A DNA stretch of 64,000 bases from Candidatus Scatonaster coprocaballi (GCA_018064475.1 JAGHVD010000013.1:9206-73205); one strand, 5' to 3'; counted from the first letter of the stretch, positions 20,676-39,271 are shown. Notes: a model not told the origin generated them from the sequence alone. Numbers and translations: made by a program.

Positions 20676-21768
20676 TTAAGAAACGTTTCCGGCCTTGCCA
20701 GGCTCAGCGGACACATCTTGGGTGGTGCGGATCCAGTAATTCTCGTTATAGATGTTATCCAGCTCGCTGAAATAAGTCTGCTCGTAGACACCACCATCGG
20801 CTAGAATCGTACGACGAGAAGGCTCGTTGTCTGTGTGACAGACGACGAGGACTTTCGAGTGTCCGAGGAGCTTGGAGTAAGGAAGCGCCATGGCCAGGAT
20901 CCTCTTGCCGTATCCGCGACGACGTTCAGAAGGACGCACGGAGTAAGAGATATGTCCACCATGCTTGGACATGTAGTCGTTCAATTCGTGTTTGACTTCA
21001 ATCATGCCGACAGGGATACCATCGGACATACGGAAAGCGACGAAAGCTGTTGTCGGCATATAGTAGGATGGCGCAGTCTTACGAGAACGGAGCGACTCTA
21101 CAAACGGAAACCACTCCGCGATATCGTCGAAAGAATGCAATAGGGCAGAACCAATAATGTTCTCCTCTCCCCAAGAGATGTACTCATCGCGGAAGTCTTC
21201 CATCTCTTCTGCAAAGTCCAGAGAGGGGGCTGTGAGGATGATGGCATCGTCGGGTACATAGGCAATACAGGTCATCGGGTCCGAGAAGTCGAATTCGTAG
21301 ACTTCATAAGGCGCATTCGGCATGTGACCCACAACAAAGAGCGTGTTGCGCTCCGGCTGGTATTCGGCGCCGCACCATATGAAGTCAGTCTGTGTCTCGA
21401 AAGCTTCGTCCGAATAATAGCGGTGTTCGTTCAACGTGTTCAGGTTAAATATAGAGAATCCGAAGCGGTCCCGACGGAACACATAATAGAGGTTGCCGTC
21501 GCGATGCTGAATCATCTCACTCAATGGATGATCACAGTCCAGACAGTCGTAACTCAAGAGCAATTTGTGATCCGGTGCAAACAAAGAGAAATGTCCGGCC
21601 AGACGTTCTTCACCGTCCAATTCACCCTCATAGAAGTCACAAAGAAGAGAATAGCCATTAGGAAAATAACCCTCCTCCTTGGAACGATGGTTCTCAGCAC
21701 GGAAGAGGATCTCAGACTGCTTCTTATATTGTTCCGCATATTCGAATGAAAATGCGACGTTTCTCATA
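20676..21768 (-). CDS. hypothetical protein with a C-terminal GNAT N-acetyltransferase domain
   Basis: C-terminal ...RRRGYGKRILAMAL... is the acetyl-CoA binding motif A of GNATs. Start chosen at MRNVAF behind AAAGG. The longer ORF to 21911 lacks an RBS and would overlap the divergent gene. Confidence 0.55.
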
Positions 21769-21893
21769 CTAATACCTTTTTTGCCCCGACACGACTGCTT
21801 TTTTAAAACAAAACAAGTGTAGCATAATGAGAGATAATTGACAATCTGAAGAAGCGATTTTATATTATATAGTGAAATAGGAGGGCTATACTC

Positions 21894-24800
21894 ATGGAAA
21901 TAGCGTTTCACTGCCCCAATTGCTCGGCAGATCTAATATACGATGAGTCTAAGAAATATACATGTTGCTTCTGTCATACGGTGCTTACGCCGAAAGACGA
22001 GGTACTTGAACTTGAGGGTGGATATTACGTCGGTGATGCATGGAATGCAAGTTTGTACCATGGTTATCGTTGTGAGAATTGTAGTAGTGAATTCATTGCA
22101 AAAGAGTCGAATCATGTTGACTGCCCGATCTGTGCAAGCAGTTCGGTGAAGGATCTCGGCGCAGAAATCGGTGCAATGCCGAGAAGAGCCATTCCATTTA
22201 CACAGACCAAGGCCCAGGCCGAAGAAGTGTTCCTGGATTATATCCGTAACAATTCTGTTGTGGGTAAGATCATGGCGACGGAAGAGAATGCGTCGTTGCT
22301 TCGCCAAGTATATGTTCCAATGTGGGTCTTTAATTACGAAGTGATTGCGAATGTTCGTCTGAATGCGAACATTCGAAACAAAGCCAATGAGTCGACAACG
22401 ATTATGGGTTTCAATGTCCCAGGACAGATTATGGAGAGATTATCTCCAATCCGCTCTTCAATTTCGCGTTTCCAGCAGAATCGCAAAGGCGGCAAGGATA
22501 TGAGCGATATGCCTACCGAATATACAACTGGCGGTGTGCTTTCTTGGCAGGGGATTCCTTTCGATGCATCCGGAGTGCTGCCACCAACTGTGATGACGGC
22601 TTTGCAACCATATGACCATGCGAAGTTGGCAAAACTCAATGAACGTATTCTAGGCAATGCACCGATCCTTGCACTGACAAAGGATCCAATTGCCTCGATG
22701 GAAGAATTTATGGAGCGCATCAAGAAGTGGACACGTCAGATGATCATGGATGCCCATGCGGCTTCCTATGAGATTGTTCATTTCTCCGATAAGACAGATT
22801 ATCCGCTGGGTATCGGTGAACTGGTGCTTTTCCCAATTTGGTTCATGAAGTCTGAATACGAAGGTAGAGAATTCTTCTTTGCCATGAATGGTCAGAACGG
22901 CGAGGTAGAAGCCAAGATTCCAATGGCCAAGATGTCGAAGAAGTCCAATACGATCTCTTACCAGCAGTACTGGGACAAGGAACGCTGTGCAGCACTTCAA
23001 GATACACACTTTGAGTTCAACATACATGATCCGAATATTGAAATCCTGGATTACTCGTTCTTCGAGAAGCCGAAGAATTCTCGCGTGACGGCAGATGGCA
23101 GCAATGTGACGCCTAAAGGTGCAAGCCTTGATGATGTTCTGCCTGAAGAACCGGTAGAAGAGAAACCCAAGACCCCGGCGAAGACAGGACTTGAGGTGGA
23201 GAACCTAAGAACAGATAAGAAACTGACGAAGGAAGAAGAAGCCAAGCGTGCACGTGAAGTAACGGCCCGTCTGCGTGTTGCAGCCAAGGAGACACCGAAG
23301 GGTGATATGTCTGCAGCGGCAGAAGCGCCAAGTTGGGCGAAGGCGGTTACACCACCACCGGCTATGTCAAGTTCCAACCGTCCGGCTGCCAGAACATTGA
23401 AGCCGGCTGCAGAGCGTCCTGTCAGCAAAATCGCTGCTGCCAATAAGCCGATCTGGGAGAGAACGGAAGAAGAGGAAGAAGTGCTCAATAGTAAGCCGTT
23501 GACGTTGGCGGATCGCATTGCACAGACGAAGAATGTTGAGCCATCGTTCCCAGTAGAAGAGGCCCCTCAGCAAGAGATGGCAAGCCGTGGCATTGTTGCG
23601 GAAGTTGCGGCAATGAGGGAAGATAGAACTTCTGCGGAAGAGTATGAGGTACAGGCGAATACAATTGATTCTTCTGAAGACATCTACGAAGTACCGATGA
23701 CTACGGATCGCTTTGATGAGGAAGCTTATCAGGAGATCCCAATGCCAAAGGCTTATGTGGAGCAACCGGAAGAGAAGGAAGACGAATCCATTGTTGAGCC
23801 TCAAGAAGTGCCGGTCGATCAGACTTCAGAGAATGAGGATGAGGAGCTTATCTCAAATATTACATTCTCCTTCCCGAAGAAGAAGAAGTCTATGTATAGT
23901 GGAGAGCCGACCATGTCTGGTTCATCGATTCCGCGTCGCAACGAAGCAGAACCGGAAAAACCAAAGGGAATGGCAATCATGAATTCTGAGTACGAGTCCG
24001 GAATTCTGCCTAGCGGTTCACTTCACCGTGAAGAAGACGACGAAGTACGTGAAATCACGCCGAAGTTGAACGCGACAGAGAACTATATCGGTACAGATAA
24101 GAATGACCGCCCGCTTGCATCTCGCCCTGTAGCACCGCTTGCAAAACAGCGTGGCGATGTCTATGTAGAAGAAGTAGAAGTACATCCTGAGTTGGATGAG
24201 AACAATCGTCCGCTGGCCAAGAGACCGCCGGCCCCGTTGGCAAGAGTGACGGATGTAGAGCCAAGCTTGGAGTATTTGGCGGAACAGCCGCTGGATGATG
24301 ATATTCACCAGATGCCTTCCATTGAGAAACAGAAGTCCAGATGGGGTGACATGCCGCAGGCCGCTGAGACGCCAGCATGGGCCAAGCCACAGCAACCACA
24401 GCGCGCTACTCGTGATGATCGAGGGACTGCTTCCCGTGATGAGCGAATGACAGCTAGAATGGCTTCTCCGCGTGAGCGAGTCAGAAGACCTTCTCGTGAA
24501 GAACTGATGGCACAAGATCGTGCGCGTACAGAAAGTGCTGCGGCCCGTATGGGTGTGGATCTTCCTGAGAAAAAGCCACTAACAAGACCGGGTACAACTG
24601 CCCAGAATATGGGTCGCCCCGGTTCAAATCTGGATAAAGATGAGACCATGCGTGCTTCTCGCCCGGCATATATGGCTGCAGTAGAACAGCCGAAGGCAGT
24701 CGAGGAGTCACCGGAGGAAGAGGAAGTACGTCCGATTTCTTCCGCATTCCGTCCGGCAAATCGCCCCGCGTCAAACGCTTCCGAGGAGAGTCGCCCTGTA

Positions 24801-25808
24801 GCAGGCCGTCCGGGATCTGCTCGCCCTTCCGTTGCCAAAGAACCTCAGCAGAAGAGAGTACCGATTTGGGAACGTATGCCTGAGAATGATGGCTCAAGAC
24901 CACAGTGGGCAGCTACAACTGCTTATGAAGATGAACGCCCGAGAGGCTCGTTGTCTAAGCCGGCAGGACAGGTAATCGATGTAGAGAAGCCCAGAACCAG
25001 ACCTTCTGTGTGGAGACCGGATCCGGATGCTTCCGTCAAGGAAGTGCTACCGGGAAGCTTCAGTAGTGATGAAGGAGAAGTCCGTGAGGTTCCGCTACGC
25101 AGAGAAAGTGAAGAACCAAGAGAAGTGCCAGTGCGCCGTTCTTTTGTTGAACGTCAGGCCGTAGCGGAGAAGTCTTCTTCCAACGAAGAAGTAGAGGAGA
25201 TCATCCCACAGGTGAAGAAGCCGACGCGCCCTACTTCCGGTATTGAGGTAGAGATACCAAGCATTCCGAAGAAACAGCCACAGGTGATTCCTGTTGAAGA
25301 AGATGACGAGCTGGAGAAAAAACAGGAGTCTGTACTGGTGGAGCGAGTGGAGGCACCGGTTGAACAGCCAGTAGCACCAGTCGAGACCCCAGTCGTGCCG
25401 GAGAATCCAGTGAATGAACGCCCGCGTACTTTTGCCCAGCGTCGTCAGATGGAAGAAGAAGAGAGAAGACGTCAGATTCAGAGTTCTTTCGGAACAACGA
25501 ATACTCGTCCGGGTGCAAGCGCGCGCGCCGCAGCTTTCCAGCAGGAAGAGGAACAGCCGATCAACCGTACATTCGAGTCGACACAGTTTGAGAACAAACC
25601 TTCCGTAGTGGCTTCTTTGGATCAGTTACCACAGCCACTGGACGATGACAGCATTCATCATCTGGCGAAAGACGATAGCGTGCCGGCGCTCGCACGAGAG
25701 GTTGACCGTGTTCGCGATGGCGTGAAAGAAAGCGAGAAGAACGCACAGAGAGCGATTCGTGATCTTCCAGATTACGATCCAGACGGACCGAGTCCTTTCC
25801 GGAGATAA
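21894..25808 (+). CDS. uncharacterised zinc-ribbon family protein, paralog P1 (1304 aa): N-terminal CxxC zinc ribbons plus conserved core, then a ~900-aa E/P/R/A-rich low-complexity region and the C-terminal DLPDYDPDGPSPFRR tail
   Basis: CPNCSADL...CCFCHTV and CENCSS...CPICAS ribbons. Conserved blocks AIPFTQTKAQAEEVF, QVYVPMWVFNY and LFPIWFMKSEYEGREFFFAMNGQNGEV are shared with P2, P3 and P4. RBS AGGAGGG upstream. Confidence 0.7.
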   Translation: MEIAFHCPNCSADLIYDESKKYTCCFCHTVLTPKDEVLELEGGYYVGDAWNASLYHGYRCENCSSEFIAKESNHVDCPICASSSVKDLGAEIGAMPRRAIPFTQTKAQAEEVFLDYIRNNSVVGKIMATEENASLLRQVYVPMWVFNYEVIANVRLNANIRNKANESTTIMGFNVPGQIMERLSPIRSSISRFQQNRKGGKDMSDMPTEYTTGGVLSWQGIPFDASGVLPPTVMTALQPYDHAKLAKLNERILGNAPILALTKDPIASMEEFMERIKKWTRQMIMDAHAASYEIVHFSDKTDYPLGIGELVLFPIWFMKSEYEGREFFFAMNGQNGEVEAKIPMAKMSKKSNTISYQQYWDKERCAALQDTHFEFNIHDPNIEILDYSFFEKPKNSRVTADGSNVTPKGASLDDVLPEEPVEEKPKTPAKTGLEVENLRTDKKLTKEEEAKRAREVTARLRVAAKETPKGDMSAAAEAPSWAKAVTPPPAMSSSNRPAARTLKPAAERPVSKIAAANKPIWERTEEEEEVLNSKPLTLADRIAQTKNVEPSFPVEEAPQQEMASRGIVAEVAAMREDRTSAEEYEVQANTIDSSEDIYEVPMTTDRFDEEAYQEIPMPKAYVEQPEEKEDESIVEPQEVPVDQTSENEDEELISNITFSFPKKKKSMYSGEPTMSGSSIPRRNEAEPEKPKGMAIMNSEYESGILPSGSLHREEDDEVREITPKLNATENYIGTDKNDRPLASRPVAPLAKQRGDVYVEEVEVHPELDENNRPLAKRPPAPLARVTDVEPSLEYLAEQPLDDDIHQMPSIEKQKSRWGDMPQAAETPAWAKPQQPQRATRDDRGTASRDERMTARMASPRERVRRPSREELMAQDRARTESAAARMGVDLPEKKPLTRPGTTAQNMGRPGSNLDKDETMRASRPAYMAAVEQPKAVEESPEEEEVRPISSAFRPANRPASNASEESRPVAGRPGSARPSVAKEPQQKRVPIWERMPENDGSRPQWAATTAYEDERPRGSLSKPAGQVIDVEKPRTRPSVWRPDPDASVKEVLPGSFSSDEGEVREVPLRRESEEPREVPVRRSFVERQAVAEKSSSNEEVEEIIPQVKKPTRPTSGIEVEIPSIPKKQPQVIPVEEDDELEKKQESVLVERVEAPVEQPVAPVETPVVPENPVNERPRTFAQRRQMEEEERRRQIQSSFGTTNTRPGASARAAAFQQEEEQPINRTFESTQFENKPSVVASLDQLPQPLDDDSIHHLAKDDSVPALAREVDRVRDGVKESEKNAQRAIRDLPDYDPDGPSPFRR

Positions 25809-25821
25809 AGATCAATAAAGT

Positions 25822-27399
25822 ATGGAACACGCATGTTTTTGTCCCAGTTGCAGAGCAGAAATTATCCTCAATCAAGAGGAGATTTCTGCTTGCTGCTTTT
25901 GCGGAAAGAATCTAGAGGAATATACGAATCTTGAAAGTCAGCAAATTCTGGGAAGTTTCTTCGTACGAGAGGTGAACGGTTCAGAAAGGGAAACTGCGAT
26001 ATGCAGAAGCTGTCAGCGGACGATGATACTTCCGTCCACAGGAGGCTTACGCCCCAAAGTTTGCTTGTATTGTGGTGCACCAGATCTCTCATTTTCTTCA
26101 CAGCAAGTAACCTTACCGAATGAAGAGATCATGATTCCGTTTTCTGTTTCTAGAGAAGAAGCGGTTAAGACTTTTCAATCTGCGGTTCGTCATGACAGAA
26201 AGATTCTGGGCGGGTATACTTCTAAAACTAATCTTGAATCGATCACCCCAGTATACGTACCGTGCTTCTTTTTCAATTACCATGTATACGCCTCTGCCAT
26301 TCTGAGCGTCGTTCCGCGTGTGAAGGACGTCCGTGAGAATACAATTGGTAGCCGTATTTTTAGTGCGCTGGTGATGGAAGAGATCAACTTCAATTTGGAG
26401 CGGACTTCCAATGTTGCCCAGCCATATGACAAGAATACAGGTGGGGAAATGGCGTGGAAAGATATTCCCATTTTGGCAAGTACTGCCATTAGCCGTGAGC
26501 GCTTCTTTCAAATCTCACCGTTTTCCACCAAGAAACTGGGGGGGACGAAGACAGCGGTAGAGAAGCAACTGAGTGAGCAAGCCGTGATCTGTGCGCTGGA
26601 ACGTTCACCGGAAGAAATCACGAAAACCCTTCAGATGCTTGTTCGAGATTTTGTAAAAGAGTGCTTGGTGACGAATAATCTTGATCATTTCAAGATTACT
26701 TCTTTTGTGGATCAGACAGACTATCCGATGCCCGTCGGCCAGATGGTCTATGTACCAGTGTGGTGCGTGAAGATTCGAAAGAAGAACCAGTGTTTCAGCT
26801 GGTATATGAATGCGGTCTCCGCACAATTCTCACAAGCAGGTGTGGAGGAAAAAGACGAATCCATTTCTGTGCAGACATCTGCGCTTGAAGAAATGAGGAA
26901 GAAACGCATTAAGAAATTTTCTGAGGCTGATTTCCAGAAGAACAATCGACCGTTCAACTATCGTACCTATATGGTCGATGAGATGGCCTCAGCCATTTCT
27001 GCCGAGATGAAATTGAACGAGTGCGCCGCAGATAAGTCTCTTCTTCATCTGGAACGTACGACTCGCAGAAACATGAAGGAAATCACGGTGCCGATCGTGT
27101 CCTATGGATATCAGGCCGAAGCAGAAGAAGCGGTTAAGCGCGCGAAGATGGAACCGCTTCCAAGTAGCCCAGTAGAACTTCCTTCTACCCACTCGTATCT
27201 GTATACGATGAAAGAAGAGTCGATGAAGCGTTCTTTGGGACGAGGACAGCGGCTTCCTGAGAAACCGATGGATCGTCGTGTGGGAAATGAACACGAGTTC
27301 GATAACCAGGATAACTCCCATGAGTATATTGCCAAAGAACTCGGACTTGCCGATATCCCAGAGTATGATCCCAATGGACCGAATCCTTTCAAAAAATAG
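25822..27399 (+). CDS. uncharacterised zinc-ribbon family protein, paralog P2 (525 aa), with C-terminal DIPEYDPNGPNPFKK tail
   Basis: CPSCRAE...CCFCGK and CRSCQR...CLYCGA ribbons. Conserved blocks MIPFSVSREEAVKTF, VYVPCFFFNY and YVPVWCVKIRKKNQCFSWYMNAVS. The C-terminal tail motif matches that of P1. Confidence 0.7.
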   Translation: MEHACFCPSCRAEIILNQEEISACCFCGKNLEEYTNLESQQILGSFFVREVNGSERETAICRSCQRTMILPSTGGLRPKVCLYCGAPDLSFSSQQVTLPNEEIMIPFSVSREEAVKTFQSAVRHDRKILGGYTSKTNLESITPVYVPCFFFNYHVYASAILSVVPRVKDVRENTIGSRIFSALVMEEINFNLERTSNVAQPYDKNTGGEMAWKDIPILASTAISRERFFQISPFSTKKLGGTKTAVEKQLSEQAVICALERSPEEITKTLQMLVRDFVKECLVTNNLDHFKITSFVDQTDYPMPVGQMVYVPVWCVKIRKKNQCFSWYMNAVSAQFSQAGVEEKDESISVQTSALEEMRKKRIKKFSEADFQKNNRPFNYRTYMVDEMASAISAEMKLNECAADKSLLHLERTTRRNMKEITVPIVSYGYQAEAEEAVKRAKMEPLPSSPVELPSTHSYLYTMKEESMKRSLGRGQRLPEKPMDRRVGNEHEFDNQDNSHEYIAKELGLADIPEYDPNGPNPFKK

Positions 27400-27404
27400 A
27401 AGAA

Positions 27405-27436
27405 GAGAGGGTGCCTCAAATGATGAGACACCCTCT
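27405..27436 (+). terminator. hairpin downstream of P2, possible terminator
   Basis: agagggtgcctcaaatgatgagacaccctct perfect stem. There is no clear T-run after it. Confidence 0.35.
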
Positions 27437-27505: not shown

Positions 27506-28195
27506 TTAGAGTAGTCCTTCTGGATTTGGGAAGTCGGCTTCGTCCATGAAATCCAAGAACTCATCGTAAACATCGCTGCCGCAACTTCCTGTATAGAACA
27601 CGTAGTACACCAAGGTGCCACTTACCTTGAGATAGACGATATCGCAACCATTGCCCTCGTCAGAGCGCTGGATCGCCAAGTACTCATCCTCTGCGTCATC
27701 GTCAACGGCCCATTCGTGGTCGGTAAAAGCGGCGTCAAGTTGCTCCATGCGTTCTTCCGAAAACAGATTATCTTGGCATTCCTCAAGATAACCGTCATAG
27801 TAATCCTGGGCGAGGTCTTTGTTCTCTAAATCAAAAACGGCAGCCATAATACCATGATTATCCTCGATTTTGTAGAAGAGTGTGACGCCCTCCAAATCGC
27901 CTGCTTCTGCACACTGAAGAGTCAATTCGTATCCTTCGGCTTCACTAGAAGAAAAGACACAATATACACCGTCTTCAAATCCATCCGCATCGATATCTCC
28001 TTGGCGAAATGCTTTGCGCTGCTTACTGTTGGCTTTCTCTGCGCCACAGGCTTCTTTGGCAGCGTTGGTAAATTTCTTGGAAGCCTTACTATACTTGCTT
28101 CCCCCAATGCTGAAAGAGAAGGAACATCCTGTAGCACCGACGATCATCGTAGCGACCATGCCCAGTGCGAGAAGTTTAGTCTTGATATTTTTCAT
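27506..28195 (-). CDS. hypothetical lipoprotein
   Basis: Start chosen at MKNIK behind GGAGGA. Lipobox IVGATGC. Acidic extracellular domain. Confidence 0.55.
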   Translation of the reverse strand: MKNIKTKLLALGMVATMIVGATGCSFSFSIGGSKYSKASKKFTNAAKEACGAEKANSKQRKAFRQGDIDADGFEDGVYCVFSSSEAEGYELTLQCAEAGDLEGVTLFYKIEDNHGIMAAVFDLENKDLAQDYYDGYLEECQDNLFSEERMEQLDAAFTDHEWAVDDDAEDEYLAIQRSDEGNGCDIVYLKVSGTLVYYVFYTGSCGSDVYDEFLDFMDEADFPNPEGLL

Positions 28196-28396
28196 CTTGT
28201 TTTCCTCCAAATAAATGATGTGTTTTTCCTGTTGCCTATTTCGTCAACAATAAGTAGACGAACGTGAGAACCAATCTGTTGCATAGTGAATTCTCTGTGA
28301 AATGAGCCGTCTTCTTAGTAATCGTAGATAAGAAGAGCTGTCTCGTGTATGCACGACGAGACAGTTCTTCTTCCTTTATAGTGAGTGAGGAACTCA

Positions 28397-36443: not shown

Positions 36444-36692
36444 TTACGCTTCTTCGGATGAATGATCATGCGCCAGAATAACCGGATTTTTAAGGTCAGT
36501 AAGTGGGGTGTCGCGTTTGGCATCATCGATGTAGTGCGTGAAGTGGGTCTTCCCTAAACCGAAATGATGGAGCGTCGCTTTGCTATCCCCTAGGTTGTTC
36601 GATTTGTGGAGTAAGTAAGCCAAAATCGTGAGCGCAATACTGACACCCATTACAAGTCCGAATAGTATAGATATAGCAATCTTCCAAGACAT
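36444..36692 (-). CDS. small single-pass membrane protein S1, partner of zinc-ribbon paralog P3
   Basis: TM helix, then LLHKSNNLGDSKATLHHF and NPVILAH. Strong RBS GGAAGGAGAA inside the 3' end of the upstream gene. Paralogous to 37753..38073. Confidence 0.6.
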   Translation of the reverse strand: MSWKIAISILFGLVMGVSIALTILAYLLHKSNNLGDSKATLHHFGLGKTHFTHYIDDAKRDTPLTDLKNPVILAHDHSSEEA

Positions 36693-36694
36693 AC

Positions 36695-37762
36695 TTACGC
36701 TTCTCCTTCCTGACGATTGTTGACATACTCATGTAGAGGGTTCGCGCAAGTGCGGCGGATGGAAGCGATGATTCTTCGAATCTTCCTTGCGCTGAGTATG
36801 ATGTACCCAATCACGACCAGAAAAAATGCTGTAATATATCCACTAAACGCGCCAAGTAGATCTCGCTTTTGAATGGAGAGAACACCCCAAGAAATAAAGA
36901 AGCAAATGATTGAGAAGCAGAGCGTCAGCGCGACCATAAGTAGCCAGAAACGCTTCTTGTCCCATGGCAAGCCGGCAACTACTTTGCCGGTTTGGCCATT
37001 TACGATGAGCGTATACGGCTGATCCTGATATCGGATCGTTAGAAACCATGCTGGAAGCAAGACAATCTTGAGTGGATCATATATTTCCGCACGGTAGCGT
37101 TCGGCGACGATAACTGGTTTCGGAGCCCCTTCGATGCTTTCTGCAATCGATCTGTTATAGGCATCTCGTGCTTGGGATTTTGCAATTTCCTTTGCATCTT
37201 CGATCTGCATGTCGGGCATATCCGCATAGTGCCCGACGAGATAGTTCTCATTAAAATCCTCCAGTTTCTCAAGATGGTAAGGCTCAATGCGCTGGGACAG
37301 CTCATTATCTATGACCTTCGAAGCATCCGTTGTCACATTCGGCATGGATGCGTAAGCGGAACGTAAGCGATAAGGATTGTCTTTCTGTGAAGCGCAGAAG
37401 AGTATGGAAGAATCGTATTCCACATGTGACACATAGTAGGGGATGTAGATACTCCGCAACTGTTCCGACTGGATTTTCTTGATTTCTTTCGGAATGAAGC
37501 ATCCTTGGTGGAGTCGCTCCGTGACAAGCTTCAGTGCTTTTTCCTTTGTCACGGTAAAAGGAAGGATAGAATCCGGCCGCCTCATTTTGCCAATACGAGA
37601 GAACAGAAGGGTAGGGTTTCCACAGTATATGCAGAACGTGGAAACTTCGGTATCTGTAACAGAAATCTCGGCGCCACAGGCACTGCAAGCATAGAAGTTT
37701 ACATCTAGAAACTCGTAGATAAGTCTTCCTGCACAATTTTTACATGTTTTATTCATTCCCAT
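36695..37762 (-). CDS. uncharacterised zinc-ribbon family protein, paralog P3 (355 aa), C-terminal double TM anchor
   Basis: CKNCAGRLIY...CSACGAEI and FCIYCGNP ribbons. Conserved blocks ILPFTVTKEKALKLV, SIYIPYYVSHVEY and LLPAWFLTIRYQDQPYTLIVNGQTGKV. Two C-terminal TM helices. Confidence 0.7.
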   Translation of the reverse strand: MGMNKTCKNCAGRLIYEFLDVNFYACSACGAEISVTDTEVSTFCIYCGNPTLLFSRIGKMRRPDSILPFTVTKEKALKLVTERLHQGCFIPKEIKKIQSEQLRSIYIPYYVSHVEYDSSILFCASQKDNPYRLRSAYASMPNVTTDASKVIDNELSQRIEPYHLEKLEDFNENYLVGHYADMPDMQIEDAKEIAKSQARDAYNRSIAESIEGAPKPVIVAERYRAEIYDPLKIVLLPAWFLTIRYQDQPYTLIVNGQTGKVVAGLPWDKKRFWLLMVALTLCFSIICFFISWGVLSIQKRDLLGAFSGYITAFFLVVIGYIILSARKIRRIIASIRRTCANPLHEYVNNRQEGEA

Positions 37763-38073
37763 CTTCTCCGATGACGTGCTTCATGGCTCTCTGATGATTG
37801 GAGAGCTTGTTCACTTTGCTTCTTGGCCGCTATTTCCTCCCGATGTGCGAGAATGATCGGGTTAGAAGTAGGGGGAAGCGGCGTGGAGTCCGGATTAATA
37901 TTGTTCCAGGATTTCCGCCCCTGAAAATGACCTTGATCCGAGAAATCAGCCAATCCCGCTCTTGAGTCACCAAAATTATTGGAACGTTCGAGCAAGGAAG
38001 CAACGATATAAAGCGCAAGACCAATGCCTAATGGGATGGCAAAAAGTAAAGCGAGTACCATTTCTACACTCAT
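37753..38073 (-). CDS. small single-pass membrane protein S2, partner of zinc-ribbon paralog P4
   Basis: Start at MSVEMVLALLF behind GGAGA. TM helix, then LLERSNNFGDSRAGLADF and NPIILAH. Paralogous to S1. Confidence 0.6.
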   Translation of the reverse strand: MSVEMVLALLFAIPLGIGLALYIVASLLERSNNFGDSRAGLADFSDQGHFQGRKSWNNINPDSTPLPPTSNPIILAHREEIAAKKQSEQALQSSESHEARHRRRWE

Positions 38074-38074
38074 G

Positions 38075-39271
38075 TTAGTCTCCTTTCTGTCTCTTACTGA
38101 CGAAAGAGATGAGAGAATTCTCTGTGACACGTGAAATAGAAGCCAAGACTTTGCGGATCTTACTGATACCAGCAGAGAATGCAGCCACAATGGCGGCTAT
38201 GATCAGGCCGATGAGTTTGCCTTTTGTTTTGCTGGAGTTCCGCGTGTGCTTGGCATGGACAAGTACATAGAATAGTCCATAGAAGATGAACGTGGCTGCT
38301 ACGGCAAATACGATGGAGAGTAACACGACCAAGGCGACAAAAATTGCTTTGTTCCATGGCATGCCGCCGACGGTTTTGCCGGTCTGACCATTTACGACGA
38401 TGGTGTATGGCTTATCTTTGTACCGGAGTGTCAAGAACCATGCCGGGAGCATGACCAGCTTCGGTTCCTCGTAGATCTCGCCTGCAAATACATTACGGTA
38501 GAAATGGGCATTCGAGCCAAATTCCGAGAGAACTTTCTCATCCACCGCTTCGTGTGCACGCTGCTTGGCCATTTCCTTCGCTTCGAGACGATTGATATCC
38601 GCTTGGTCAGAATAGAAACCAAGGAGATAGTTCTCGTTGAATTCTTCAAGTTCTTTCAGACGATAAGGCTCTACTCTTTGTGAAAGATTGTCAGAGAGCA
38701 TGGTGGAGGCATCCGTAGACACGTAGGGCATCGATGCGTATCCAGCGCGTATATGATAGTGCGTGCTACTTCTTTTGCCATTTGAAGTGGTCACGGCAAC
38801 GACTACTCTGGAATCCGTCTCAACCTTCGTTACATAGTACGGAATATAGATTCCACGCATCATCTCAGGTTCGAAGTTCTTGATGGACCTAGGTACGAAG
38901 AATCCCTTATTTAGATGTTCGCGTACGGATCGAAGCGCGTCTTCTTTGGAAATGGTAAAAGGCAGGATGGCATCCGGCTTCTTCATCTTTCCTACACGGG
39001 ATAAGATGACATTCGGATTTCCACAGTAGATACAGAAAGTCGACGCTTCTGTGTCGGTTACAGAAATCTCAGCACCGCACGAACTACAAGCGAAGATGTT
39101 CACATCGAGCATCTCGTCTTCTAGGTTGTCGGAATTCTTATCGTCTGTTGAAGAAGACAAGTTCTCATAGGCACTGATTGGAAAGATCGTGCCGCAGCTT
39201 CCACAAGACAGACCGTGCTTCTGGACATCATAGATGAGTCTGCCGGCGCAATTTTTGCAATTTCGAATCAC
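38075..39271 (-). CDS. uncharacterised zinc-ribbon family protein, paralog P4 (398 aa), C-terminal double TM anchor
   Basis: GTG start behind AGGAGGAT. CKNCAGRLIY...CGSCG and CSSCGAEI / FCIYCGNP ribbons. Conserved blocks ILPFTISKEDALRSV, GIYIPYYVTKVE and MLPAWFLTLRYKDKPYTIVVNGQTGKT. Two C-terminal TM helices. Confidence 0.7.
   Translation of the reverse strand: MIRNCKNCAGRLIYDVQKHGLSCGSCGTIFPISAYENLSSSTDDKNSDNLEDEMLDVNIFACSSCGAEISVTDTEASTFCIYCGNPNVILSRVGKMKKPDAILPFTISKEDALRSVREHLNKGFFVPRSIKNFEPEMMRGIYIPYYVTKVETDSRVVVAVTTSNGKRSSTHYHIRAGYASMPYVSTDASTMLSDNLSQRVEPYRLKELEEFNENYLLGFYSDQADINRLEAKEMAKQRAHEAVDEKVLSEFGSNAHFYRNVFAGEIYEEPKLVMLPAWFLTLRYKDKPYTIVVNGQTGKTVGGMPWNKAIFVALVVLLSIVFAVAATFIFYGLFYVLVHAKHTRNSSKTKGKLIGLIIAAIVAAFSAGISKIRKVLASISRVTENSLISFVSKRQKGD

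Follow-up and report, generated by a model that had tools for sequence, protein, structure and literature searches.

Zinc-ribbon membrane proteins such as YdjG are an already known type. YdjG carries two zinc ribbons, a YpeB-related NTF2-like domain and a transmembrane (TM) segment (10.1101/2020.09.24.301986), and in Bacillus subtilis YdjG and YdjH form a membrane anchor that recruits the soluble YdjI and PspA (PMC8581546). Here, we describe two adjacent genes, P1 and P2, in a 64 000-nucleotide stretch of DNA from Candidatus Scatonaster coprocaballi (GCA_018064475.1 JAGHVD010000013.1:9206-73205; the whole stretch is called the window below). Their products are soluble proteins of a zinc-ribbon family and end in the same short conserved peptide (the tail). 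The family also comprises T1 and T2, two membrane paralogues encoded elsewhere in the window, and membrane-bound relatives from other genomes that we call A-type. Among named proteins it resembles YdjG most closely, a resemblance of published architecture and gene context only. As in YdjG, two N-terminal zinc ribbons are followed by a further domain, which in P1 and P2 is an uncharacterized alpha/beta domain. A TM segment is present in T1, T2 and the A-type relatives, although P1 and P2 have none, and the membrane-bound members appear, like YdjG, to work with a second membrane protein encoded alongside. In addition, the gene for the A-type protein P0037, a membrane relative of P1 (E=3e-16), has a TPM-domain gene directly 3' of it, the order also seen for ydjG and ydjH. 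In this locus (L037, 3840-8392) the downstream gene encodes a 433-residue protein with a TPM_phosphatase domain, and a 681-residue protein without a Pfam domain precedes P0037. However, no pspA, SPFH or TPM gene lies next to P1 and P2, whose C-terminal tail has not been described for YdjG. The tail, the soluble tail-bearing pair, the origin of the tail on a membrane partner and the disordered region of P1 were not found in the libraries or literature searched. The parts of the two proteins are as follows.

21894..25808, plus strand: P1 gene, an open reading frame (ORF) of 1304 residues, with 21 distinct full-length orthologues, all directly 5' of a P2 orthologue
21894..22928, plus strand: P1 core (residues 1-345), two zinc ribbons and then an alpha/beta domain
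22953..23072, plus strand: P1 post-core island (residues 354-393, IsYQQYWDKeRCAALqDTHFEFNIHDPnIEiLDYSFFEKP), strongly conserved
23073..25745, plus strand: P1 disordered region (residues ~394-1284), with about 20 conserved islands
25761..25805, plus strand: P1 tail (residues 1290-1304, DLPDYDPDGPSPFRR); all 23 distinct P1-type tails keep D, P, G, P, P and F
25822..27399, plus strand: P2 gene, an ORF of 525 residues, with 34 orthologues at 36-98% identity
25822..26856, plus strand: P2 core (residues 1-345), two zinc ribbons and an alpha/beta domain, evolving fast and with a mosaic pattern from strain to strain
26857..27351, plus strand: P2 C-terminal region (residues 346-510), of low prediction confidence and partly helical, with conserved islands
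27352..27396, plus strand: P2 tail (residues 511-525, DIPEYDPNGPNPFKK), conserved in 18 distinct P2-type tails

The cores of P1 and P2 are 24% identical over approximately 390 residues (E=1e-31), which bears out the proposal of an earlier note on this DNA that the two proteins are soluble paralogues of one zinc-ribbon family. Three blocks are in register between them: AIPFT/MIPFS, VYVPMWVFNY/VYVPCFFFNY and FPIWF/VPVWC (P1 and P2, respectively). The zinc ribbons of P1 are formed by C7/C10/C24-C27 and C60/C63/C77/C80. In those of P2, six cysteines are invariant (C24, C27, C61, C64, C81 and C84) and two more, C7 and C10, almost so. A 19-residue Kyte-Doolittle scan finds no hydrophobic stretch of TM grade in either protein (maxima of 0.76 in P1 and 1.43 in P2, compared with 2.65 and 2.92 in the membrane-anchored paralogues T1 and T2). 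No curated family covers the core: Pfam and NCBIfam searches with P1, P2, the membrane paralogues and the A-type relatives, and also with the small membrane proteins called B-type below, return generic zinc ribbons only. The A-type relatives pass the Zn_Ribbon_TF cut-off of Pfam (33 versus 29 bits), whereas P1 and P2 fall below the Pfam cut-offs. The P2 core is predicted with high confidence by AlphaFold, with block means of the predicted local distance difference test (pLDDT) that are mostly 80-94, while residues 346-525 are of low confidence. The core has no convincing solved structural relative: a sequence-profile search of the PDB gave zinc-ribbon noise only (best E=0.03), and Foldseek gave no match below E=0.4.

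The tail is recovered between P1 and P2 as a separate local match (9/17 identical, E=2e-4), and a profile-profile comparison of the two C-terminal regions limits their similarity to the tail and a lead-in of about 20 residues (probability 94%, E=1.4e-7). The P1-type and P2-type tails all have D, P, G, P, P and F in common. In P2, all 33 sequences compared keep D511, P513, E514, D516, P517, G519, P520, P522 and F523, and all relatives end in GL[AS]D[LIM]PE[YF]DPxGPxPF[KRQ] followed by 0-10 residues; the core of the tail, [LIM]Px[YF]DPxGPxPF[KRQ], is near-invariant even where P2 identity has dropped to 36%. The P1-type tail reads [IM]R[GD]LP[DE][YF]DPDGPSPFK. The two classes are separated by fixed differences, namely DPDGPSPF in P1-type and DP[SAT]GPNPF in P2-type tails. 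The tail noticed in the window is thus kept by the homologues, which was the check that the earlier note had proposed. The terminal basic pair that it described is not conserved: most P1 orthologues end in PFKPN(R) and 1-10 residues can follow PF. In a six-frame scan of the window and the fetched loci, [YF]DPxGPxPF occurs at P1-type and P2-type C-termini only. A predicted protein of 44 residues from an ENA fragment, P0041, also ends in SPEYDPAGPNPFKKV; the rest of it, towards the N-terminus, shows no relationship to P1, P2 or B-type proteins, and a frameshift or a chimera at the end of a contig is the probable explanation.

The pair itself is widely shared. P2 has relatives of 510-528 residues when full-length, and 28 further loci were found via P2-bearing contigs and a scan of species-representative genomes. 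The P1 orthologues were taken from the flanks of the P2 loci (a direct protein search with the P1 N-terminus gave three matches). Synteny of the pair extends to at least 22 related genomes, in which P1 measures 1294-1443 and P2 514-527 residues; a P1 orthologue lies directly before P2 in every complete locus, and the housekeeping neighbours at these loci are those of the window. Nearly all of the loci belong to uncultured Clostridia of the rumen or gut (labelled Oscillospiraceae, Ruminococcaceae, 'Mageeibacillus' or Clostridiales). As the organisms are uncultured rumen bacteria, the impact of the findings hinges on heterologous-host or in vitro work.

The distribution of the tail gives a view of its origin. 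We ran HMMER with a tail profile, and without a word filter, on 1.84 billion representative proteins (E≤0.001). Of the 19 matches, four are repeat-protein artefacts and the genuine ones are P1-type proteins, P2-type proteins or small membrane proteins of 161-173 residues, which we call B. In distant Clostridia (loci L030-L032 and L034-L036), it is at the end of B that the tail is found. B runs from hydrophobic helices through a juxtamembrane segment of positive charge to a variable linker, and ends in the tail; its partner A has one TM helix in addition to two zinc ribbons and the core. The genes overlap at the stop codon of A and the start codon of B in L030 (twice), L031, L032, L034 (twice), L035 (twice) and L036, with tandem A-B-A-B arrays in L030 (5983-9137), L034 and L035. 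In L033 (5983-7572) A and B are fused in a single ORF of 529 residues. The profile of the B tail matches that of the P2 tail with a probability of 97.4% (E=1e-11), and that of the A-type proteins matches P2 residues 1-338 with a probability of 99.94% (hhalign, E=7.7e-37), the match ending where the TM helix starts. With hhalign, the homology between B-type proteins and P2 did not extend past the tail. The coupling of the tail to an A-type core was scored in P1, P2, the L033 fusion, L030-L032 and L034-L036, with P0056 and P0057 left out; the two were found together, on the same chain or in overlapping genes, in P1, P2 and L030-L036. Within the HMMER search, in which B-type proteins score about 35 bits and sensitivity to tail-only matches is borderline, the tail is restricted to the P1/P2/B system and is not a general-purpose motif.

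P1 and P2 are best read as an A core and a B tail that have been brought together without the membrane helices, because the tail sits on B or on an A-B fusion in distant Clostridia. From its wider distribution, we infer that the membrane form came first and that the soluble P1 and P2 came later. The post-core island of P1 occupies the position of the TM helices in the membrane paralogues, and its YxxY[WM]xD motif resembles YRTYMVD of P2 and Y.TY[IV]D of the B-type proteins; this juxtamembrane-type likeness is suggestive only. The positive segment that follows the last TM helix of B would place the tail on the cytoplasmic side, where the core also lies. Two other roles for the tail were considered and rejected: a membrane-targeting amphipathic helix (the tail is proline-rich and acidic, and its B carriers are already membrane-bound) and a secretion signal (a cytoplasmic core is indicated by its zinc ribbons, and the positive segment of B points to the same side for the tail).

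Between the core and the tail of P1, the earlier note had described about 900 residues of low-complexity sequence. The region is real and is predicted to be disordered: AlphaFold, run on residues 345-1304 with an alignment of P1-type sequences, gives a mean pLDDT of 45, with values below 50 for 754 of the 960 residues and isolated helices only (446-465, 868-884, 1180-1197, 1251-1257 and 1265-1289). 'Low-complexity' overstates its character, since its entropy is only moderately lowered (3.46 versus 3.87 bits per 40-residue window). Residues 401-1285 contain 14% E, 11% P, 10% A, 9% R and 8% S, and aromatic residues are scarce. Among cytoplasmic proteins of bacteria, disorder over about 890 residues is generally unusual. 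This one is also more than the linker for which it had been taken. The P1 core is 66-72% identical to most orthologues (92-99% to the two closest) and has a ratio of nonsynonymous to synonymous substitution rates (dN/dS) of 0.03-0.05 against two relatives. The middle region is 34-48% identical in most orthologues (70 and 95% in the two closest strains), with a dN/dS of 0.10-0.18, again against two relatives, and is under purifying selection. Across the 21 orthologues, an identity of 80% or more is reached at 28% of its positions, and these are clustered in about 20 islands. They include PSWAKAVTPPP (479-489), NKPiWE (517-522), NITFSFpKKK (655-664), GMaIMNSEY (692-700), RPLAxRPxAPLA (at 739 and 772), RWGDMPQAaETPaWAKPQ (816-833), VPIWERmP (989-996), QvIDVEKPR (1026-1034) and RPRTfAQRRQMEEEERRR (1176-1193). 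In the profile-profile comparison, the islands are not common to the C-terminal region of P2, except for the tail and its lead-in. P2 has conserved islands of its own there (KKRIKxF, NYRTYMxD, ADKSLLxLE, PIPSAPVPLPxxHSxLYxMKEE and RLPEKPxDRxVGNE).

Some of the P1 islands are duplicated. A BLAST self-comparison of P1 found no repeats, and duplicated motifs were sought by a windowed BLOSUM scan against 30 shuffles. The pair RPLASRPVAPLA / RPLAKRPPAPLA, given in the earlier note as an example of internal repeats, scores 49 compared with a maximum of 44 in the shuffles and is real. RPLAxRPxAPLA (739/772), GDMxxAAExPxWAK (470/818) and [LV]PExPVxE[KR]P[KR]T (416/1168) likewise outscore 30/30 shuffles, and PIWER occurs twice. 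The possibility that the long region is an artefact (collapse or expansion of repeats, or a fused or mis-called ORF) or functionless filler might be suggested by its biased composition and by many spurious ORFs on the opposite strand. It is refuted by the same reading frame in 21 distinct sequences from independent assemblies, with P1 lengths of 1294-1443 residues, by the lack of tandem repeats in the DNA of the region, by the low dN/dS and by the islands. The same lengths and the same lack of DNA repeats leave no room for variation of P1 length by repeat expansion, which had also been suggested. We infer from this anatomy that the region is a multivalent motif scaffold rather than a passive linker. 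Long disordered regions with many conserved motifs are standard in eukaryotic scaffolds, and are rare and poorly studied in bacteria. P1 provides a clean natural bacterial example, in which about 890 disordered residues carry about 20 islands kept throughout the clade and end in a peptide whose origin can be traced.

P2 evolves in another manner. Over 15.7 kb, the window and locus L005 are mostly 97-99% identical, the exceptions being codons ~1-400 of P2 and the downstream lipoprotein-like gene. Codons ~1-400 (25830-27029) are 55-75% identical in nucleotides, with synonymous and third positions mostly saturated, whereas identity over the last ~100 codons of P2 is 96-100%. The trees of P1 and P2 do not agree: the window and L005 share 99% identity in the P1 core and 61% in the P2 core. 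Averaged over 253 genome pairs, P1 cores share 77% identity and P2 cores 44%, with the C-terminal part of P2 in between at 58%. These comparisons indicate that the P2 core is fast-evolving and is exchanged by recombination, while the tail remains fixed.

How might these proteins work? On balance, we lean towards P1 and P2 being a soluble pair derived from the A/B module, with a family-specific docking tail, a receptor for it within the system and P1 as a scaffold. The ancestral module would have consisted of a YdjG-like A and of B, the flexible cytoplasmic linker of which ended in D[LIM]PE[YF]DPxGPxPF[KR]. In the lineage of rumen and gut Clostridia, an A core and a B-type tail would have been joined in one soluble chain twice, giving rise to P1 and P2. 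The tail would then be a docking peptide particular to the family, and its receptor would be an A-type core bound in trans, which would link P1, P2 and possibly the tail-less T1 and T2; because the tail is never found apart from an A-type core, whether on the same chain or in an overlapping gene, the receptor most likely lies within the system. P1 would be the multivalent scaffold, comparable to the C-terminal half of RNase E, and P2 a compact, fast-evolving partner. A conserved partner peptide would be a testable feature gained by the YdjG-like zinc-ribbon family. RNase E, of the degradosome, has a folded N-terminal domain, hundreds of disordered residues with microdomains and a partner site at its extreme C-terminus. 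The likeness of P1 to it is one of layout and way of working only: the two are unrelated in sequence and in domains, P1 has no nuclease core and its disordered region is longer. A disordered linker ending in a short conserved docking peptide is also found in FtsZ (C-terminal linker and peptide) and in SSB (C-terminal tip). The FtsZ peptide, of the D-I-P-x-F-L-R type, is superficially like the D-[LI]-P-E-Y of the tail, a resemblance to be taken as a lead. The tail consensus, YDPxGPxPF, differs in being proline-rich and unlikely to form a helix, so that the likeness is again one of working and not of family membership. A bolder extension, which we regard as rather unlikely, would make P1-P2 a cytoplasmic organizer released from a membrane stress-anchor module. 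Contacts between tails and cores would join the P1 scaffold and P2, as a hypervariable recognition subunit, in a motif-driven assembly or condensate with a specificity that is reshuffled by recombination.

Several observations weigh against the reading that we favour. The docking motif proposed in the earlier note is real as a motif and under strong selection, but no binding partner of the tail was identified, and the AlphaFold monomer of P2 (tail pLDDT ~52-57) shows no confident docking of the tail onto its own core. A hypervariable P2 core next to an invariant tail is awkward if that core is the receptor. The tail-only search worked near its limit of sensitivity (B-type proteins score ~35 bits, E ~1e-3), and carriers in unrelated proteins could have been missed. 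Lastly, the direction of evolution rests on parsimony over four independent B-type or fused lineages sampled. The main competing explanation, which we find possible although clearly less probable, is that the tail recruits a conserved cytoplasmic partner from outside the family, such as a chaperone, a protease adaptor, a cytoskeletal protein or a factor of the PspA/SPFH type. Membrane-bound B would bring this partner to the membrane, and P1 and P2 would bring it to the targets of their cores and of the P1 motifs. The two observations on P2, namely the lack of docking in cis and the contrast between core and tail, fit a receptor of this kind, as do the fixed differences between P1-type and P2-type tails and the recruitment of soluble YdjI and PspA by YdjG/YdjH in B. 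subtilis (PMC8581546). However, a peptide that binds a hub is normally carried by several unrelated clients, and none was met in the HMMER search, within the borderline sensitivity of ~35 bits given above; the tail was found in one system only. Moreover, the P1-P2, L030-L033 and L034-L036 loci have no conserved neighbouring gene in common.

The divergence of the P2 core also invites the view that P1-P2 is a conflict or defence-type system, in which the P2 core would diversify rapidly for recognition and P1 would serve as a scaffold or as a platform for effectors. The saturated P2 allele between strains that are otherwise nearly identical, the 44% mean identity of the P2 core compared with 77% for that of P1 and a PADLOC match of P2 residues 7-113 (25822-26160) to the candidate PDC-S64 (E=4.9e-5, 20.5 bits) all point this way. 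Yet this match is weak and confined to the zinc-ribbon region, and PADLOC and PHROGs gave weak matches at the zinc-ribbon level only. The pair is in stable synteny among housekeeping genes across the clade, without mobile-element or defence-island features; a scan of viral contigs gave no matches, and Pfam and NCBIfam recognize no enzymatic effector domain. We therefore hold a defence function to be quite unlikely. Another role for the tail would be to signal degradation or turnover, for instance as a tag with a basic end for an AAA+ protease: it lies at or near the C-terminus, its end is usually basic in P2 and B-type proteins, and basic C-terminal recognition motifs for ClpX are established. 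This is very unlikely, as the conserved part is a 12-residue acidic and proline-rich core, with ends that vary (PFKK, PFKPNR or PFQKNIDSEKKE) and that may run on beyond PF, while known degrons are shorter and need a free C-terminus.

The membrane paralogues T1 and T2 form a tandem array on the minus strand (36444-39271), in which each is followed by a small gene.

38075..39271, minus strand: T2, a membrane paralogue of 398 residues with zinc ribbons, the core and two TM helices, without the YDPxGPxPF tail
37753..38073, minus strand: small single-TM gene of 106 residues (MSVEMVLALLF...), with a start codon that overlaps the T2 stop codon; no tail
36695..37762, minus strand: T1, a membrane paralogue of 355 residues with a zinc ribbon, the core and two TM helices; no tail
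36444..36692, minus strand: small single-TM gene of 82 residues, directly after T1, a paralogue of the 106-residue gene

The two small proteins have SNNxGDSxA and NPxILAH motifs in common, are covered by no family library and differ in type from B. Since T1 and T2 are each accompanied by a small TM gene, as A is by B, the recurring unit of the family is a core protein with a small membrane partner. The two parts can be fused or split, and the unit can also be released from the membrane. T2 has a weak match to HEC-08 (E=0.0047), which, like that of P2 to PDC-S64, is probably generic zinc-ribbon similarity.

P1 and P2 form a two-gene operon. The gap between the P1 stop codon and the P2 start is 13 nt, and promoter-like, ribosome-binding and hairpin signals are present.

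21838..21866, plus strand: promoter-like TTGACA-17-TATATT 5' of P1, matching the consensus at 11/12 positions
21880..21886, plus strand: ribosome-binding site AGGAGGG, 7 nt ahead of the P1 start codon, read in the sequence
27406..27436, no strand: GC-rich hairpin of 13 pairs, directly 3' of the P2 stop codon

The total number of promoter-like sites in the region does not exceed that in shuffled sequences, and the site ahead of P1 is to be taken as a consensus match only. The hairpin is probably a bidirectional terminator that ends the operon. The neighbours of the pair are genes for a GNAT acetyltransferase, GH1, GT4, an EAL protein, PLD and PPK2. Just 3' of P2, an ORF of 234 residues on the minus strand (27506..28210) encodes a lipoprotein-like protein with a signal peptide and a GATGC lipobox, without a Pfam match. 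This gene has diverged strongly from that of L005 (61-87% nucleotide identity) and is missing in the distant syntenic loci L001 and L003. On the other side, the ORF of the GNAT acetyltransferase (20676..21911, minus strand, 411 residues, GTG start) overlaps the P1 start codon as called. Its orthologues have 363-366 residues, and the ATG at 21767 (MRNVAF...) is a better start, which leaves a divergent intergenic region of about 126 bp containing the promoter-like site of P1.

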